A stretch of DNA of 26,969 nt from a virus: the UHGV virus genome UHGV-2016197, one strand, 5' to 3'. The notes beneath the pieces were generated by a model. The model did no database searches, had not been told where the DNA came from, and was given only the letters and a program-made list of their open reading frames with translations. This document shows positions 293 to 11,162 of this stretch, piece after piece. Made by a program: the position numbers and the translations under genes. Position 1 is the first letter of the stretch; every line of letters begins with the position of its first letter.

Positions 293-783
293 TCAACGCA
301 CTGGGTTAGTTGAATTTACAACCATGCTCAGTATCTCGATAAACGCAGAGAAATGATGCAGTGGTGGGCAGATTGGCTTGATGAAAGTGTGCTGTAATCC
401 TCATATCCAACCTAAGAGATATGCACAATTTTGTGAATAAGATATTGAGAATTAGCGAAAAGTTTTATTTTGCGTATCATCAATTCAGAATACAAAGTCA
501 CATGCTAATGTTCTGCATTGGTATCTTTTGCTTATCCATGTCTACATTATCGCCAAAATAATAGGTTTTGCCTATCAATTATTTGAATTACTTCCATGAA
601 ATTATAACGCACTTGTAATTTTTGATTATTTTTACCTCTCAAGTGTTTTGTTTCTTCTATCTCTTTGTATTTTTAGCGAAAGTATGCCATATTGCATTCT
701 AATATAACGTGGCGTTGTTTCTGTTTAATGATTTAAATAGTTCAACATAATATTTGCTAACAAATTATATCCAAGCAAATCAT

Positions 784-1929
784 ATGATATTATCATTACA
801 ATATATTAGAGGAATAGCATCATTACTTGTTGTTTTATTCCACTTCAGATTCTTGCTAAATGAGCACTACTCTCAGAAAGATTTGGGTGACCTATTATTT
901 GGGAATGGGCTGTCTGGAGTTGATATATTCTTCATATTAAGTGGATTTATCATCGTATACTCAACAAGAAAGAAGGAAGTTAATGATACTTTCTCATTCT
1001 CAATTAGAAGAATATTTAGAATATACCCATTACTAATCACATGCTGTTGCATGTATTACATAATAAACACTCAATTTCTAACCTATGCTACAGTTGAAAA
1101 CTTTAGAACATTACTTATTTCCATCATTCCATTAAATATAAACTGGAATGAAGGCGCTCCATTCTTTGCCTATAATCTTTTGTACCCGGCCTGGACGATA
1201 ACATATGAAATTGGTTTCTATGTTTTTTTCGGGGTATCAATGTCTATTTCGCATAAATACAGAACAATTATCTGTTCTGTTTTTATAATCATGGTGGTCT
1301 CATTTACACAATACTATGTGAATGGAAATATATCATTTTCAGGTGATGTTAGTGCAGGGTTATTTACAGATAACTGGTTATTAGGATATACAAATGTTAT
1401 TACATCTCCAATGATGTATGAATTCGTTATTGGGATGTTTCTTTCTGAAATATTTACAAACATCAACGAAAGAAAAAGTATTAAAAGGATACTTTCAAAG
1501 TATTCGCTTCAAATACTATGGATTTCATGTGGTATATCCATAATATTATTCATTATCCAGCGACCTTATGGGCATGGATTGAATGGATTTGGGACTATGG
1601 CGATGATACTTATTGCATCATCATTAGTATATGAATACTGCAATATAACACCCAAAATAAAAATATTTAATTTCCTTGGTGAAATATCATATTCTTTATA
1701 TCTAATTCACGCCGTGATACTTGCTTTGTTCTTCTATTATAAGGCAGACCTTGCTGAAATTGGCATAACTGGTGGATTTTCTGTGTTTTTTTCCTTGGTT
1801 ATTATCTCAATAACTGCATCATATCCAATATATATTCTCATTGAAAAGCCAATGATAAATATAGGCAAACGTTTAATTGACAAGAGAAACAATAGCATTA
1901 ATAAAAAAGAAACCGAAATAACAGCGTGA
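784..1929 (+). CDS. Acyltransferase family 3 integral membrane protein; probable surface-polysaccharide (O-antigen) O-acyltransferase, lysogenic conversion moron
   Basis: Translation has the acyltransferase-3 N-terminal pattern (LQYIRGIASLLVVLFH ... GVDIFFILSGFII) and multiple hydrophobic segments. Strongly AT-rich relative to the rest of the window. The ORF-track start at 754 is TTG; first ATG is 784. Sits where Sf6 carries oac (between tailspike and att). Confidence 0.8.
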   Translation: MILSLQYIRGIASLLVVLFHFRFLLNEHYSQKDLGDLLFGNGLSGVDIFFILSGFIIVYSTRKKEVNDTFSFSIRRIFRIYPLLITCCCMYYIINTQFLTYATVENFRTLLISIIPLNINWNEGAPFFAYNLLYPAWTITYEIGFYVFFGVSMSISHKYRTIICSVFIIMVVSFTQYYVNGNISFSGDVSAGLFTDNWLLGYTNVITSPMMYEFVIGMFLSEIFTNINERKSIKRILSKYSLQILWISCGISIILFIIQRPYGHGLNGFGTMAMILIASSLVYEYCNITPKIKIFNFLGEISYSLYLIHAVILALFFYYKADLAEIGITGGFSVFFSLVIISITASYPIYILIEKPMINIGKRLIDKRNNSINKKETEITA

Positions 1930-4153: not shown

Positions 4154-5122
4154 TTAGATTTCTGGTTTCATTCTTCCAAAAACCTTTTCTATTCCTTTTT
4201 CGTATTCTTCTCTTGTCTCACTCATCGCTGCGACCCCAAGAAGCTTACCGATATGCTGACGCAAAGCCTTGACACCAATTTCAGAAAGGAACAGATGCAA
4301 CTTATCAGATTGTTTTCCGTTCTCGTCTCGGCTGGCTCGAATCTGTTCAAGGATTTTACCTTTACTCTTTGCTAGCGGGGTGTATATCTGCATGTTGGTT
4401 AGCTGCCCAAAACGAATAGGCCGTCCTTTCTCTGGCCTATTCAGGCCGTACAGTCGATACCACTCCTCGTATAGCTCATCTGGAAATTCCTTTTCATATT
4501 GACGAGCTTCTTCACGAACAAACGCTTTGAACTCGTCAATGACAGCCTGAACTTCTGGACGATAACCAGCAAGCGCATACGCAACCCCCTTAATTCCCGC
4601 CTTAGCGGAGGCATTAATAAGTCTCTGTGCTGCGGCGGCTGCCTTTAACCGTGATTGTGGTAGATCGTCATTATCTTTGGCTTCTATTAGTGCCCTACCA
4701 ATATCAACAATTGCTGTAATGTCATAACCTAACGCTTGATGAACGGTTTTAGACTTCGAAGTAAGTTGAAATTTATAGGGATTTTCCATTTTTCGCTGCA
4801 ATTCTAGATCTCGGTATTTGCTCATATACTGAGCGCCAAGTAGTTGATCTAAATCCCTGGCATGTTCACCAATCCCTAGCAACTGAGATAATCCAGTTTT
4901 CGTAACAACGACAGTTTTCGACTCGTCATCCAGTACATAACATTCAGCATCAATGCCAAAATCATCTAAAAAGTTACCACGATGAGTTGCCCTGAGAATC
5001 TTACTTTTCCATCTTGCAGCAGCTGCTTTCTTTGCTATTTCAGAACGCTGCTCTTTAGTCAGCGACTTTGCGCGAGCGATCCCGCCCTTAGCTTTCCCTT
5101 CACTACTTTTCTTTTCTGTCAT
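4154..5122 (-). CDS. Hypothetical accessory protein, P63C-domain-like, with basic N-terminal putative nucleic-acid-binding segment; function unknown
   Basis: 322-aa ORF; ATG verified at 5122 with AAGGTG Shine-Dalgarno. N-terminus KGGIARAKSLTKEQRSEIAKKAAAARW followed by ATHRGNFLDDFGIDAECYVLDDESKTVV resembles the pattern I recall for P63C-domain phage proteins. Own promoter and two terminators; not part of the P22 core virion gene set. Confidence 0.7.
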   Translation of the reverse strand: MTEKKSSEGKAKGGIARAKSLTKEQRSEIAKKAAAARWKSKILRATHRGNFLDDFGIDAECYVLDDESKTVVVTKTGLSQLLGIGEHARDLDQLLGAQYMSKYRDLELQRKMENPYKFQLTSKSKTVHQALGYDITAIVDIGRALIEAKDNDDLPQSRLKAAAAAQRLINASAKAGIKGVAYALAGYRPEVQAVIDEFKAFVREEARQYEKEFPDELYEEWYRLYGLNRPEKGRPIRFGQLTNMQIYTPLAKSKGKILEQIRASRDENGKQSDKLHLFLSEIGVKALRQHIGKLLGVAAMSETREEYEKGIEKVFGRMKPEI

Positions 5123-5277
5123 AATGCAAGCACCTTGTTGTGATATATGCTTGCATTATATACACTGTACACACATACAAGCAAGCATAAAACCAAAACA
5201 AAATGCTTGCATTACAACCGCGCTACTCCAACTACACATTATCATCTGGTATCCTGCACAAAACTAAGGAGGTTGGT
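5123..5277. promoter_or_regulatory. Divergent control region with four copies of a 9-10 bp operator-like motif (ATGCTTGCAT and its complement) and a perfect TATAAT for the minus-strand gene
   Basis: Motif copies at 5124-5132, 5147-5156, 5181-5188 and 5203-5212 in alternating orientation, forming two inverted-repeat pairs with 14-15 bp spacers. Minus-strand TATAAT at 5155-5160 abuts one copy; AAGGAGG Shine-Dalgarno at 5266-5272 serves the plus-strand ORF. Confidence 0.5.
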
Positions 5278-5606
5278 GTGCTTGAATGGTTTCTGTTGGC
5301 TGCATTAGTCGTTTCTGGTTTGGTGTATGAGTATCGAATGCACTCTCTAACAAAAAAATAGGAATTCTAGAAAACGAATATTGTGCTCTCAAATCCTCAC
5401 TGGAACGTGAGCAAGGGGACTTAAAAATCTCTCTGTCTAGCATTGAGCGTTCTATAGAGAGCTTAGAGGATAAGGTTGATCGTATAAAGAATGAGGATAT
5501 TCATGATATTAAGGACGACATATCCTTCTTAAAATCTTGGTTGAAAAATGTTGGGAAAATTGCCACATCAACACGAGATAAGCTCAATCCATCCATGGAT
5601 GACTAA
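5278..5606 (+). CDS. Small membrane-anchor ORF (27 codons, GTG start) that reaches a 83-codon coiled-coil-like downstream frame only through a -1 shift at an A7 tract; possible recoded gene, phase-variable gene or frameshifted pseudogene
   Basis: Strong SD AAGGAGG + 5 nt + GTG (5278). Frame 0 reads (M)LEWFLLAALVVSGLVYEYRMHSLTKK then TAG at 5359-5361. Heptamer A_AAA_AAA at 5352-5358; -1 frame continues IGILENEYCALKSSLEREQGDLKISLSSIERSIESLEDKVDRIKNEDIHDIKDDISFLKSWLKNVGKIATSTRDKLNPSMDD to TAA at 5604-5606 and has no ATG/GTG/TTG start of its own. Confidence 0.3.
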
Positions 5607-7766
5607 TTACTCCTGTGCCATTCCGCTTAGCGATGCCACAATTCCAGCTCTTGCTAAACGCTGGAACTCTTCGTTTCCTAGTGCCTCGCGTATTGCTTTT
5701 ACGGCGGCCTTATTTGCCATAAATCTGCGTTCCGCTGCCGCTAATGCTTCTTTGCTTCCGCCTGCTCTTACTGCTTTAGTGGCTTCCTGAACTGCTTTCT
5801 CTATCGCATACCGACCACTACGTGTGGTGGCAATTTTAGATACAGCGCCTTTTAACCCAGCGCCAACTAAAGCACCTGCGGCAGCGCCTGCAATGCCTCC
5901 TCCAGCGCCACCAACAATGGCACCTGATGTTGAGTTGGCAATTGCATTTAACACTGTTGATGTGACGTTGGATAAACCAGCATCCAGATCGCGTAGTACA
6001 TTGGCAGTTCTCCCTGTTCTTTCAATATACTGCTGAGGTTTCACTGCTGCTCTTGCAAGAGTGCCATACGCATCAGCAATTCTTCCAAGCTCTGAGGAAT
6101 ATCTGCTAATGGCTTTTACATTTTGTGGAGTGAGTATCTCTGCGATATGGTTAATTCCTGCTGCATCAGCTTTGCCACCACGTACACCATGCGAGATGGC
6201 ATCCTGCAACATTGATGATATAGCAGGAACACGCTCTGATTCTGGCAGCGCGCGGATCATAGAATGGAATCCAGCAGGACCATTAAGACCTTTAGCTGAC
6301 GATGATTGAAGGGATTTTACTCCATTCGTAATCAGTGCATCTGTTGCCAAATCACGCCCGAAAACAGACTCTGCACTCTCTTGTGCTGATAACCTCGCTT
6401 TAGACAGATCATTAGCTTTTTGCCAGTCATCAAGAAATCCGCCGTTTTCCGCCATTGTGCGCATATCATCAGTAATTGCCCGGCGTATTTCCCCTGCTCT
6501 CCTTGCCGCATTTGCCTCTCCGCTACGCTTATATTTTTGCTCCGCATCAGCAAATTTCGCTCTCCATGCTTTCATGCCATCAAATGTTACTCCACCTTGA
6601 TTGTTTGCCTGAACAAACTGTTTCATTTCAGGAGTAAGCGGTATGCCGGCAGATCGCTCTGCCTGAATAACGGCATTACCATTTAGCATTCTTGCTTTTT
6701 GATTTGGCATTGTTGACCGTACGTCATCCCATGCCGCGCGCTCGGCATCCTTCATCTGATCAAGATTTTGAAGAATCCTTTGTTTTATAGCCGCACTTTT
6801 TTCTGATGCCGTTCCAGATGCGGCCCCAAATTCATCAAGGTTTCGACTTAACTTTGATGATATTTCGTTAAATGCTGCCTGATGGGCGTCCTGAACAATT
6901 CCTGGTGTTGATGCCAATGCGCCTTCGGCTTGTGCAATTCCACGACTTCCAGATCGCATTCCTGGTGTTAATGCGTTTATATCAATTCCAGCAGACTCAG
7001 CCGCTTTTGCTACATCTTCGGACACATTAGCGGCCTGACTGGCAATTGACTGACGCCCAGCACCTGACTTTGCCATCCTGGAAACATCATTAGCAGAATT
7101 CAGTGCTGCACCACCAAGAGCCTGTGAAACCCTTGGCGCAATAACGCGCCCGACACCTGAAAGAACGCCTTGAGCACCAATATTGATACCACCGTTAATG
7201 GCAGCATTTTGTGCAAAGTCGCCCTCCTGATTTGCAGCATCAGCAAGAGAACCTGCAATCATGTTTCCTGCGGAACCGATATCTCCAGCGAGCTTTGCTG
7301 TCGCTCCAGCAGCTTTTGCCGCTGTGCCAATTGGCAGGAGATACCCACCAAATGTTTCACCGGCTTGCGCCCAACGGTCTGTCGGTCGATCGACAGGGCG
7401 ATAAACATCATCCAAAACCTTGGGGCCACCAAGCCCATGGCTGATTGCATTAATCAGACTTGCGCCACCCTGCAATACGTCAAATGGTATGTTTACCAGA
7501 CCACGACCAGCCTGTTCTGCAATTTGCCCTGCACTTTGACCACCTGTGAGCCAATCGCCAGCTTGTTGCATCAATGATGGTTCTTCTTTCTGCTGCTGAT
7601 GCGGAGGGTATGCTGCATAAAACTGATCTCTTGCTTCAGCCCATTTGTCACCAGCCTTAGGGGCAACAACCTCATCAAAATATTGCGCTTGAGCCTGTGC
7701 TTTCTGTTCTTCAGTTAACGCCTGATACTGTGGAGAGGCGATAACATCTTTCCATGCTTTAGCCAT
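5607..7766 (-). CDS. Ejection (pilot) protein, P22 gp16-like
   Basis: 719-aa Ala/Gly/Gln-rich protein at the gp16 position, last gene of the head-tail operon; ATG verified at 7766, overlapping the upstream stop (TAATG). Confidence 0.75.
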
Positions 7767-9154
7767 TAATCACCCCATAGTGAAGAAAAGTTACTGCTGG
7801 CTGCTGGCTGTGATACCTGTGCAGGTTGAGATTGCTGCCGCTGAGATTTACCAACATTAACGTTATATTGTTGGTTGTAATTGTTGGTGTATTCCTGAAT
7901 CTCACGAATCGACTGCTGCATAGCCTCCGGGCTTGAATAGTCAACCTGCGGCATCCCCTGAAAATACATCTTCGCTTCTGCAACGGTGTTAATACCACTG
8001 GCACCCATGTCCCTTGCTGCCGCCACACCCTGTTTCTGCATTCTGCCCTGAATACGTTGTGCTGAGTTATATAACTGGCGCTGCTCTTTTCCCGTTAATC
8101 GGCTGCGAACATCAGCACCAATTGCTGGATTACCTGCACCGCCTGTCATTCCTGTCATGAAATCGAGAGCAGAAGCGTCTGCATTTGCGATCGCGTCGAT
8201 ATCCTTCTTCATGGCATAGTTTTGTGCTGATGCAGACGATGTTGCCGGCGCAGCGATTGAACTGGCAGGAACGCGAACCATATTCCCCTCGTTGTCGATG
8301 CCTTCGTAGAACGCATTAGCCCCAGCGCCGTGAAGTTTCCCTCCTACCGTTACAGTTCTGCCATCTGATAACTGAACTGTACGCTCATCATTCCCAGCGG
8401 TTCCTCTTGTTGACGCTCGCTGCATTGCCAAATCCTGCCCGCGTCGCGCAGTAGAAGCAGATAAGTCCTGACCGCGCATCGTGATGTTCTGACCTCGTGC
8501 TGTTAGCGCCTCTCCAGCCTGATTGCTGCGGATTGTCTCTGCCAGCCTGCCTCGGTCAATTTCACGACCAGCCATCTTGTCCTGAACATTGAAGTAATCA
8601 ATCGGACCAAGAGCAGCCATCCCAAGGTGATCAACAAACTCACCAAATCCTGAAGGATTCTGCTGATACATCTGAGCAACGCTGTTAGGGTCAACACCGA
8701 CGCGAGTCAGTTCCTTGGCGTTGTTTTGCAGCCATGATTGCATTGCTTCTGGAGACGATGACGCAAGGCGTGCGCCAGCCGCTAAGGTGCCGATAGAATT
8801 ACGCTGGTCTTCATCAATGAATCCCATGCCTTTACGAACGGATTCAATCTGGTCTGGATATTGAGTAGCCAACTGACGCAAAGCACCGCGATCACCAGAC
8901 GCATAAGCATTAGCGTACGCCTGCTGAAATTCTTTCTGCCGCTGAGCCTGCTTCTCCTGCTGAAACACCCCCGCAATACCTGAAAGGCCTTGCAAAGCAG
9001 TCAGCCCAACATTGTTAGCGCCTGAACGCTCAATATCATTGTTCTGCCTGATAAGCTGAAGCGTATTGCCGATGTCATTTACGCTCGGAGCGTTTGAGTT
9101 GACGCCGCCGATACCAGCCAACAATCCGCCATTTGATCCTTGCCAAGTAGCCAT
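7766..9154 (-). CDS. Ejection protein, P22 gp20-like
   Basis: 462 aa, conserved position between gp7 and gp16 homologues; ATG verified at 9154. Confidence 0.75.
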
Positions 9155-9163
9155 GATTACCCC

Positions 9164-9856
9164 TTAAAACAACGAGCCAAGCAATCCGATACCAGCACCA
9201 ATGCCAGCGCCCCAAGGTGTTGATGTTCCCAAAAGGCTGGCAAGACCTGCACCGGCAATCGCACCAGACGTGCCACCGCTAATTGCAGTCTGAAGACTTG
9301 ATGGTTTATTGGCATTAGCAGCGGCAAGAGCTGCGCTTTGCTGTGCAATGCTGCTCATGTTGTTGGCGTACGTCTGCCCGGCGTTTGCCTGACCTTGCAG
9401 AGCACCAAGCCCAACGTTTGCCAGATTGTTGTAATTGCTCATCTGGTTTGATAACCAAGACTGACCGAGAGTCGGCGCGATCGTAGCCAGTTGATTGCTT
9501 GTGGCTGTCGAACCAAGTCCTCCCGTAGCCTCCGCAGCAGCAAGACTCTGGTAACGAGCCTGACCTGCAAGGTCTTTATACTGCTGAGAGTTGTAATACT
9601 GATTAAGTGCCTGCCCCTGACCTTCCAAACTGGAAAGGTTCTGAAGCTGGTTAACATACTGCTCCGCAAGAGGCGTGAACGGAGCAAGGTTTTTCATGAT
9701 CGTCTGCCACTGCTGATTTTGCAGGTCTGCGGCATACTTCTGAGCTTCTGCGGCATACTTTGCACTTTTATCAGAACTGCCACCTTTCCCGCCTTTTTCA
9801 TGGCAATAAGGTTCCTCGCCGCGCAGTTTTCTGCCCAGCTTAAATGCATATAACAT
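9164..9856 (-). CDS. Ejection protein, P22 gp7-like
   Basis: 230 aa; N-terminus MLYAFKLGRKLRGEEP...KGGKGGSSDKS and Gly/Ala-rich C-terminus ending GLLGSLF match P22 gp7 from memory; ATG verified at 9856. Confidence 0.8.
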   Translation of the reverse strand: MLYAFKLGRKLRGEEPYCHEKGGKGGSSDKSAKYAAEAQKYAADLQNQQWQTIMKNLAPFTPLAEQYVNQLQNLSSLEGQGQALNQYYNSQQYKDLAGQARYQSLAAAEATGGLGSTATSNQLATIAPTLGQSWLSNQMSNYNNLANVGLGALQGQANAGQTYANNMSSIAQQSAALAAANANKPSSLQTAISGGTSGAIAGAGLASLLGTSTPWGAGIGAGIGLLGSLF

Positions 9857-9858
9857 GG

Positions 9859-10314
9859 CTATCTCCCGTGATTCAGGAAGTCGATTAGTTCTTCGCGTGT
9901 GGCGCTGTAAAACGTCACGTCATCCACGCCTTTGAAGTATTTCTTGATGGTTCCGACACGCTTAAGGCCAATCATTGCGCAGTAAATCTGCCCGTGGCGG
10001 AATTTGCGTGCGGCGAACGATGTGACGCACTGAACGGTGGTGTTAGTCAGAATGTATCGCCAGAACGCCAGCCCGATTTCCTTGCTGAAGCCGCGAATCT
10101 CTGGCAGGTACATGGCGTGGCAATCGAATGTCAGCGGCTGAATCTCCTGATAGTAAACAATGCCGCCGAACTGCCCGTGCACGTTCACCTCAAAGTAACG
10201 GCAATCAGGTTTGTAGTCGTATCCATCACCGTTGTTGCTTCCGGCAATAATGTCAGGGTGATTTCCGACTGCTTCGATCAGGTCGATGTTTCGCGTTGGT
10301 TTGAACTGAATCAT
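9859..10314 (-). CDS. P22 gene 14-like protein (assigned by position)
   Basis: 151-aa ORF between tail needle and gp7 genes, as gene 14 is in P22; ATG at 10314 overlaps the needle stop (TAATG). Confidence 0.65.
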   Translation of the reverse strand: MIQFKPTRNIDLIEAVGNHPDIIAGSNNGDGYDYKPDCRYFEVNVHGQFGGIVYYQEIQPLTFDCHAMYLPEIRGFSKEIGLAFWRYILTNTTVQCVTSFAARKFRHGQIYCAMIGLKRVGTIKKYFKGVDDVTFYSATREELIDFLNHGR

Positions 10315-11162
10315 TACTGCTCCGCGATTATCTTGATGGTTGTGGCAGTAAACGCCGCACCATTAGACTGAATGGTTAACGTGCTGCCATTTGTGGCAAG
10401 AAAGCCGTCTTTATCCACGCTGAAGAACGTAGCTAACAGGATGTTATCGGTTGTTGTCGCCGAGTTGCGACTGCTTACCAGAGTGTCAGGAACAGAGCCG
10501 GAAAAGGTTAGCTGCATTGACCTGTTGGAGGTTCCGCTGGGCCACGTCCCGACGATCGACAGCTTGAATAACAGGGTTTTGTTCTCGTTGAACACAACCA
10601 TCTTGTTGTTAACGGTGTCGAAGAATGGTGCCAACGAGCCGGATGACGGCGTGAGCGTTTTCAGCAGGCTAACAAGGTTGGTCGGCGCTGTCGGAATGGT
10701 TACAGATACGCCAGAGTAAACAACCTCTGACTTTTTTCGAGTAGTGGCATACTCCAGAGCATCAATGCGCGTTTCATGGTCTGAAAGCGTGTTTTGAATG
10801 GCGACAACTTCATCAGTCAGATAATCAATATCGTTTTCTGCTGTCGTTAATCGCGAATCAAGGCCGACTATCGCCGCTTCTGCGTTAGTGATCCTTGTTT
10901 CGTGGTCCTGAATCTTCGCTTCAGCTGATGCCAGTCGAATTTCGTGATCGACCAGAATCACATCCTGCGCATCGTTCCTGACTTGTGCGTCATAAGCGCC
11001 CTGCCCTGCTTCATTGGCCTTGTTCGCCACGTTACCAACATCTGTACCTTGCGCGATAACGTAAAGCAGATACGACTGCGAGAAGATATTGCGTGGAAGG
11101 ACTGATGTATCGAGCCGCGTAGCCTGGATGATTACCGGCTCATTGAGATTCGAATCAGCCAT
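10314..11162 (-). CDS. Tail needle protein (P22 gp26-type coiled-coil N-terminus with Sf6-type C-terminal knob domain)
   Basis: From ATG 11162 (TAATG overlap with the gp10 stop) 282 aa: [43 protein letters not shown]... matches the gp26 N-terminus from memory; the C-terminal ~130 aa are a beta-rich domain unlike the P22 gp26 helical tip. The ORF-track start at 11264 is an in-frame extension into gp10 and was trimmed. Confidence 0.85.

Follow-up and report, generated by a model that had tools for sequence, protein, structure and literature searches.

The window, meaning the whole stretch of 26,969 nucleotides that was analysed, is a P22-like (Lederbergvirus) prophage of E. coli. Its bases 1-330 have matches in 5,416/5,426 complete E. 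coli genomes, and the window appears to include either a prophage end or a cryptic-prophage segment widely shared in E. coli. The site under study lies in the variable region between the tailspike gene and gene 16, where a short plus-strand gene is present in two pieces. The features of the region, named according to the homologies given below, are as follows.

754-1929, plus strand: O-antigen-type acyltransferase (Acyl_transf_3), adjoining the tailspike
3913-1967, minus strand: tailspike with a P22 head-binding domain
4154-5122, minus strand: P63C-domain protein (phrog_2384), divergent from hkcB; same arrangement in vB_EcoP-611R6
5267-5273, plus strand: strong Shine-Dalgarno (SD) sequence AAGGAGG, 4 nt ahead of the GTG start
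5278-5606, plus strand: whole hkcB (phrog_5962 family), disrupted as judged by homology; convergent with gene 16, the stop codons abutting directly
5278-5361, plus strand: hkcB 5' fragment; GTG start, 27 codons, premature TAG attributed to a frameshift
5352-5358, plus strand: A7 homopolymer, very probably the site of a 1-nt deletion; A8 in all intact orthologues
5359-5361, plus strand: TAG stop, in frame only through the deletion; in A8 alleles part of ATA GGA (Ile28-Gly29)
5358-5606, plus strand: hkcB 3' fragment in the -1 frame, 82 codons plus TAA
5607-7766, minus strand: gene 16-type DNA transfer (ejection) protein, full length
Further rightward: genes 20, 7 and 14; needle; gp10; gp4; coat; scaffold; portal; terminase

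The 5' fragment is a 27-codon ORF with the sense sequence VLEWFLLAALVVSGLVYEYRMHSLTKK, followed by the stop. It consists of a transmembrane helix plus YEYRMHSLTKK, and its N-terminus is hydrophobic, with a Kyte-Doolittle maximum of 2.16 at residues 2-16 (15-residue window). The ORF ends ACA AAA AAA TAG, which places an A_AAA_AAA heptamer at 5352-5358 in the 0-frame register of GTG 5278, as in a slippery heptamer. The TAG is an out-of-frame reading of A-TA-G. Positions 5331-5603 are open in the -1 frame, which terminates with TAA at 5604-5606; counted from ATA 5358 it contains 82 sense codons, or 83 with the stop. An earlier sequence-only reading had reported the A7 run with its in-frame TAG, the 27-codon membrane-helix ORF and the A_AAA_AAA register, and direct reading confirmed all three. 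Its 83-codon downstream frame also stood, as 82 sense codons plus the stop, but its statement that this frame has no ATG, GTG or TTG was wrong, for TTG 5541 and ATG 5595 lie within it. Both fall in the last 22 codons, too late for either to serve as a start for most of the -1 frame.

The SD sequence and GTG start are conserved in HK620 hkcB, epsilon34 gp14, SEN22_15 and P22 sieA. A start at ATG 5203, which gives a 52-aa ORF spanning 5203-5361 as in the 611R6 annotation, was rejected in favour of GTG 5278 because all homologues, and sieA too, retain the SD and the GTG but not the sequence further upstream. AAAAAAA occurs 11 times in the window compared with 11.05 expected from shuffles, and the A7 run is by itself not statistically unusual. 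What gives the site meaning, as far as can be judged from sequence, is the homology of both of its halves to one known gene.

That gene is hkcB. Megablast of 5120-5650 against phage genomes matched vB_EcoP-611R6 with 100% coverage and 98.7% identity, and HK620 with 98.8% identity; the matching feature in HK620 is hkcB. HK620 hkcB (AAK28903, 109 aa) is one CDS of 330 nt on the strand opposite gene 16, which it abuts, and 611R6 also has a single ORF at this position (URC09199). HkcB is a 109-aa protein of phrog_5962, its function recorded as unknown, and its gene occupies the genomic slot of sieA in P22. In a three-way alignment of the window, HK620 and 611R6 the tract is the sole indel, with A8 in both phages and A7 in the window. 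The 246 nt from the tract to the stop are 100% identical between the window and both phages, and the 3' fragment is nucleotide for nucleotide HK620 hkcB codons 28-109. With A8, translation runs on through ...T K K I G I L E N E Y... to give a single protein of 109 aa. This conceptual A8 translation matches phrog_5962 over profile positions 2-109 of 109 (E = 1.9e-61) and is 98-99% identical to the HK620 and 611R6 proteins. The homology and the A8-to-A7 difference are thus read directly from the alignments, by which the two fragments together are identified as the accessory gene hkcB of coliphage HK620. The sequence-only reading had suggested that the downstream frame can be expressed only as a fusion and that the two frames might be joined in orthologues; both points are right for the intact gene, in which A8 makes one ORF of them. 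Tryptic peptides spanning the junction of the full-length protein would be, for example, KIGILENEYCALK or IGILENEYCALK.

Database homologues of HkcB are single ORFs of 107-109 aa. The window copy sits where the family sits, in the variable region ahead of the tailspike, where it converges on gene 16 and abuts it; it departs from the family in its in-frame TAG after codon 27. By alignment it is a disrupted member of the HkcB family, homologous but not intact. Ten homologues align across the junction without a gap, and S23, K27, L31 and E34 are invariant. Between HK620 and epsilon34, codons 28-109 have a pN of 0.26 and a pS of 0.68, which reflects purifying selection on the part of hkcB that the window frame has lost. 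None of the database homologues compared is an anchor-less version with its own start. The genes of epsilon34, SEN22 and CUS-3 (50% identical) have the same SD and GTG. At the tract position they read TTA AAA/AAG CAA AAG ATA (L-K-Q-K-I), with no A homopolymer at the junction. A homologue with 68% identity (P0017) has T-Q-K-I-K there.

Other members of the family show features of their own. In DNA the 3' end of hkcB is its best-conserved part, with 83% identity to epsilon34/CUS-3. Two homologues (P0022/P0023) are chimeras in which some 60 unrelated N-terminal residues precede the last 44 of HkcB (DKVDRIKNEDIH...PSMDD), which points to a mosaic recombination joint within hkcB in other phages. 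Two others (P0014/P0016) begin MVSVGCISRFWFGVW..., which is the hkcB -1 frame with the TGA at window 5328-5330 read as Trp. From their sequences these appear to be annotation artefacts, namely gene calls with a TGA=Trp genetic code on short contigs, and not true variants.

Tract length in other genomes was determined with a length-neutral pattern, GCACTCTCTAAC N{4,12} TAGGAATTCTAGAAAACG, which allows 4-12 bases between the flanks. The scan found A8 in 31/31 IMG/VR viral contigs. Among 11 metagenome contigs, 10 had A8 and 1 had A7. The pattern had no match in the GTDB species-representative genomes, presumably because the E. coli representative does not carry this prophage. The region is present in 82 of 5,426 complete E. 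coli genomes. Each of these 82 loci has exactly one base more than the aligned 91-nt A7 query, and an identical match did not occur; the sequence of E. coli CE10, checked directly, has A8 and an annotated intact CDS of 109 aa. In total, A8 with a single ORF is found in more than 120 related phages, comprising HK620, 611R6, 31 viral contigs, 10 metagenome contigs and 82/82 E. coli genomes.

Three further contigs have other tract lengths or backgrounds. One (L056, ERR10498788) has A6; its nearest relative is an A8 locus with 99.6% identity, the tract being the sole gap. Another (L057, ERR4656897) has A10 in another hkcB background, and a third (L058, SRR16764780) has A7, also in another background. 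Compared with their nearest relatives, L057 and L058 each contain 3-4 further gaps; they are probably noisy assemblies with unreliable tract lengths. With three gaps against its nearest relatives, L058 was not counted as an independent recurrence of A7. Homopolymers are indel hotspots, and this tract is an ordinary one without switch behaviour.

The A7 allele is carried by the window and nine contigs (L040, L045-L051 and L059); over up to 3.6 kb these nine match the window with 99.97-100% identity. They represent nine accessions, comprising six Logan runs, two ENA metagenome assemblies and OIEW01000152.1. The last, which is the lone A7 contig of the metagenome scan, matches window 5124-10608 with 100% identity. 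When the truncated 52-aa ORF was looked up exactly, it was present in 8 contigs from 7 samples (ERR10376750, ERR10376537, SRR6256381, SRR22865514, SRR22865522, SRR4408126 and ERZ28665555), and a further look-up found the A7 allele in ERZ28521452 as well. For the nearest A8 loci, identity to the window is ~99.0% over 3.6 kb and does not exceed 99.5% in the 0.5-0.7 kb around hkcB. Within the lineage of the window the tract is A7 in 10/10 members. Recurrence of A7 in independent assemblies shows a real allele, as opposed to a sequencing error; since all copies belong to one near-identical lineage, the alignments point to a single mutational origin from an A8 ancestor. Reproducibility and confinement to one lineage are both observed in these contigs.

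Very probably, then, the split gene results from the loss of a single A from A8, an inactivating and possibly slightly leaky frameshift of hkcB in one prophage lineage. One A would have been lost from the ancestral A8 in the hkcB of a P22-like (Lederbergvirus) E. coli prophage. The deletion would shift reading onto the TAG directly 3' of the tract, so that the standard product would be the 27-residue membrane anchor only. Codons 28-109, the long helical part, would have no usable start, stranded as they are in the -1 frame. The mutation would have had a single recent origin and would be stably inherited in its lineage. A7 would then be null or strongly hypomorphic, the product affected being a non-essential membrane protein that lysogens probably express. 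We infer both the loss of function and the low leakiness of the allele from this arrangement. Among the options that the sequence-only reading had listed, an inactivating frameshift is the one that the orthologues favor, as they fuse both frames through A8. The -1 frame shows no decay at all, which is equally expected for a very recent mutation and has no discriminating power. The persistence of the A7 lineage across many samples argues that the allele is at least tolerated, and it could have a mild advantage.

Some authentic protein may still be made from the disrupted gene. A -1 ribosomal slip on A_AAA_AAA, or one A added by RNA polymerase, would give exactly wild-type HkcB, and a small amount is probably produced from the A7 allele. 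This leak is probably incidental and well under ~1% of products, a figure inferred from published reporter data. Unstimulated heptamers in E. coli frameshift at 2-10x a 0.055% background, and A_AA.A_AA.A is among those giving >0.10% without stimulators (PMC4066793). A counterpoint is that the window has a true slippery heptamer in the right register with the stop in the A site; considering the 25-60% frameshifting at C-AAA-AAA in pDEST17, a T7 overexpression vector (PMC1851650), the leak could be higher than assumed. Those values mean that context can matter for the frameshift level at such heptamers.

Recoding signals were sought around the tract. Folding gave no stimulatory RNA structure, with z = +0.48 for 5359-5450 and z = -0.08 for 5330-5420 compared with shuffles. 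The 22 nt upstream of the tract contain no SD-like element (GGAG/AGGA-type), and the whole window has no match to an Rfam family or frameshift element. Of the properties of a programmed -1 site, the heptamer is therefore present, and the stimulator and a conserved two-frame layout are missing. Programmed -1 frameshifting, which the sequence-only reading had proposed, is not supported, considering the single clonal lineage, the missing stimulator and the divergent homologues that do not have the tract. Its proposal of transcriptional slippage fares no better. Productive slippage is expected at runs of ~9 or more in many bacteria and the run here is 7, and the split layout is not preserved among homologues.

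Among the remaining explanations the one that survives best, though we consider it unlikely, is that the frameshift is leaky or compensated and has a biological use. A7 would be kept for a low, tuned supply of authentic HkcB, in the manner of a 'savior indel' with compensatory frameshifting (PMC5009743). The A7 allele would then be a maintained leaky hypomorph, in which a -1 slip at the UAG pause or an added A yields a low level of HkcB that the lineage tolerates or prefers; this too has only a small chance of being right. The heptamer register is correct for such a use, the shifted product would be identical to the wild-type protein, and the A7 lineage is present in many samples. IS1 frameshifting uses an unstimulated A6C site (PMC4066793), and the rates cited above for A_AA.A_AA.A and C-AAA-AAA also speak for it. 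However, the arrangement is limited to one clonal lineage, has neither a stimulatory structure nor an upstream SD-like element, and shows no sign of selection for A7. Unstimulated heptamers reach only the low multiples of background given above. [quoted passage not shown] A wider version of the hypomorph reading would have the A8 tract make hkcB evolutionarily switchable. A maintained hypomorph, if true, would make an accessory gene of a temperate phage a natural instance of a savior indel paired with compensatory frameshifting.

Still less probable is a phase-variable tract, also raised by the sequence-only reading, in which replication slippage would alternate A8 (ON) with A7 (OFF) and hkcB would be a contingency gene. 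Homopolymers are described as indel hotspots (PMC4066793), and the rare contigs with A6 (L056), A10 (L057) and A7 on a different background (L058) are of the kind that switching would produce, although the additional gaps in L057 and L058 point to noisy assemblies. Tract polymorphism among close isolates was not observed, as all 10 lineage members have A7 and the length-neutral and genome comparisons gave A8 in 31/31 viral contigs, 10/11 metagenome contigs and 82/82 genomes. Distant homologues do not have the tract. Eight A's are also short for a contingency tract in mismatch-repair-proficient E. coli, which counts against phase variation.

A sequencing or assembly error, with a true tract of A8 and an intact gene, is very improbable. 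Homopolymer length errors are common on some platforms, but the identical A7 is found in 9 other contigs from 9 accessions, and with at least nine further assemblies carrying it this option of the sequence-only reading was rejected. The ten window genes that were scanned have no frameshift. Eight of these ten virion, packaging and ejection proteins match PHROG profiles essentially end to end and 0/10 are broken, so the window is not riddled with homopolymer errors. Termination-reinitiation at ATA 5358, which overlaps the stop (A-TAG), or at ATT 5364, 3 nt past the stop, would give the 82-aa helical part without its anchor, but this is the least probable of all: neither codon is preceded by an SD, both are very weak initiators in E. 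coli, and no homologue has an anchor-less version with its own start.

The role of the intact protein was approached through structure, profile searches and position. AlphaFold2 predicts a helix unbroken from residue 2 to residue 103, the junction included (pLDDT 86); in this model HkcB is probably anchored in the membrane by its N-terminus, with a long and probably coiled-coil helix after the anchor. A Pfam profile search of HkcB gave only sub-threshold coiled-coil noise. PADLOC gave no defence-system match beyond a weak one to DpdH (E = 0.002, 16 bits). A very weak PHROGs match to an Rz-like spanin (E = 0.07) was not credited. In the epsilon34 genome paper hkcB is placed in an 'ant moron' between gene 16 and the tailspike, its function unknown (PMC2629481). 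That paper was the only relevant one among the papers listed for hkcB, and the SieA paper (PMC10883804) does not mention the gene.

SieA is expressed from the prophage, sits in the inner membrane and prevents DNA from being delivered through the gp16/gp20 conduit (PMC10883804). The window locus and P22 sieA share 34 identical nt including the SD and GTG. HK620 hkcB is preceded by all of the PsieA promoter region, divergence from sieA beginning immediately behind the start codon. In the window this region of HK620/P22 gives way, from 5246 leftwards, to the sequence upstream of the P63C-domain gene; a consensus scan found no plus-strand promoter for hkcB in the window. HkcB is not homologous in sequence to SieA types A-C; the alignment with sieA diverges directly after the GTG, and HkcB does not contain the SieA motif FxRYPxEAxxFNK (from PMC10883804). 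Position and architecture make it plausible, as a guess, that HkcB is a further membrane factor expressed in lysogens; from its position, an exclusion function may be supposed.

Several other observations were made around the gene. E. coli CE10 (L060, NC_017646.1 830467-836558) has its intact hkcB (A8, 109 aa) in a clearly decayed P22-like prophage, in which gene 16 is truncated beside an IS3-family element and the tailspike gene has a frameshift; the intact copy hints weakly at retention of hkcB in lysogens. Window 5121-5214 contains four copies, two per orientation, of an 8-12-nt motif, TAATGCAAGCA / TGCTTGCATTA. The copies sit in the divergent intergenic region between the P63C-domain gene and hkcB, one of them overlapping the minus-strand start codon at 5122, and by their arrangement look like putative operator sites of some regulator. 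A promoter-like match, TTGAGA-17-TAGAAT (10/12), lies inside hkcB at 5392-5364 on the minus strand and is directed towards the P63C-domain gene. The region has 2 promoter-like matches compared with 1.7 in shuffles, and this one is probably due to chance.

The finding has an ordinary cause and matters mainly for annotation, in which the two pieces are one disrupted hkcB, a pseudogene by homopolymer frameshift, and neither a recoding site nor two genes. The case also serves as a worked example: a slippery heptamer and a stop in a single sequence are no evidence for programmed frameshifting before orthologues have been checked. The natural A7 allele and its A8 relatives also form a ready mutant/wild-type pair for an exclusion or defence test of HkcB.

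The split gene resembles several known systems in part. As in contingency loci, a homopolymer lies in the 5' part of a surface or membrane protein gene and the OFF allele is one unit apart; the window differs in that its tract is short, shows no polymorphism among close relatives and is not conserved in the family. In slippage rescue at A/T runs, known from E. coli, endosymbionts and the A8 of human apoB, one extra A in the mRNA restores the frame (PMC1088944; PMC5009743), as it would here. Known bacterial rescues, however, involve runs of 9 or more, and a run shortened to 7 makes transcriptional slippage less likely, not more. The -1 sites of E. coli, dnaX (A_AAA_AAG) and those of the IS1/IS3 families (A_AAA_AAA/G/C), share with the window a heptamer of lysine codons and a start-less -1 ORF (PMC4066793). 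With the exception of IS1 (A6C, no established stimulator), they have an SD-like element, hairpin or pseudoknot as stimulator, whereas the window has none, and their two-frame layout, unlike that of the window, is conserved among homologues. P22 sieA has the slot and orientation of hkcB, likewise encodes a membrane protein and shares the 34 nt with the SD and GTG, but its 164-aa multi-pass product contrasts with the 109-aa single-pass helix of HkcB, and there is no similarity past the first codon. The closest likeness is to HK620 hkcB, whose homologues are epsilon34 gp14, CUS-3 hkcB and SEN22_15. The upstream neighbor is hkcC in HK620 and the P63C-domain gene in the window, as in 611R6, and the A8 single ORF of HK620 stands against the A7 split of a 27-codon ORF and a start-less 82-codon frame. 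At ~99% nucleotide identity the position, the SD and the GTG are the same, and so is the protein once one A is added.
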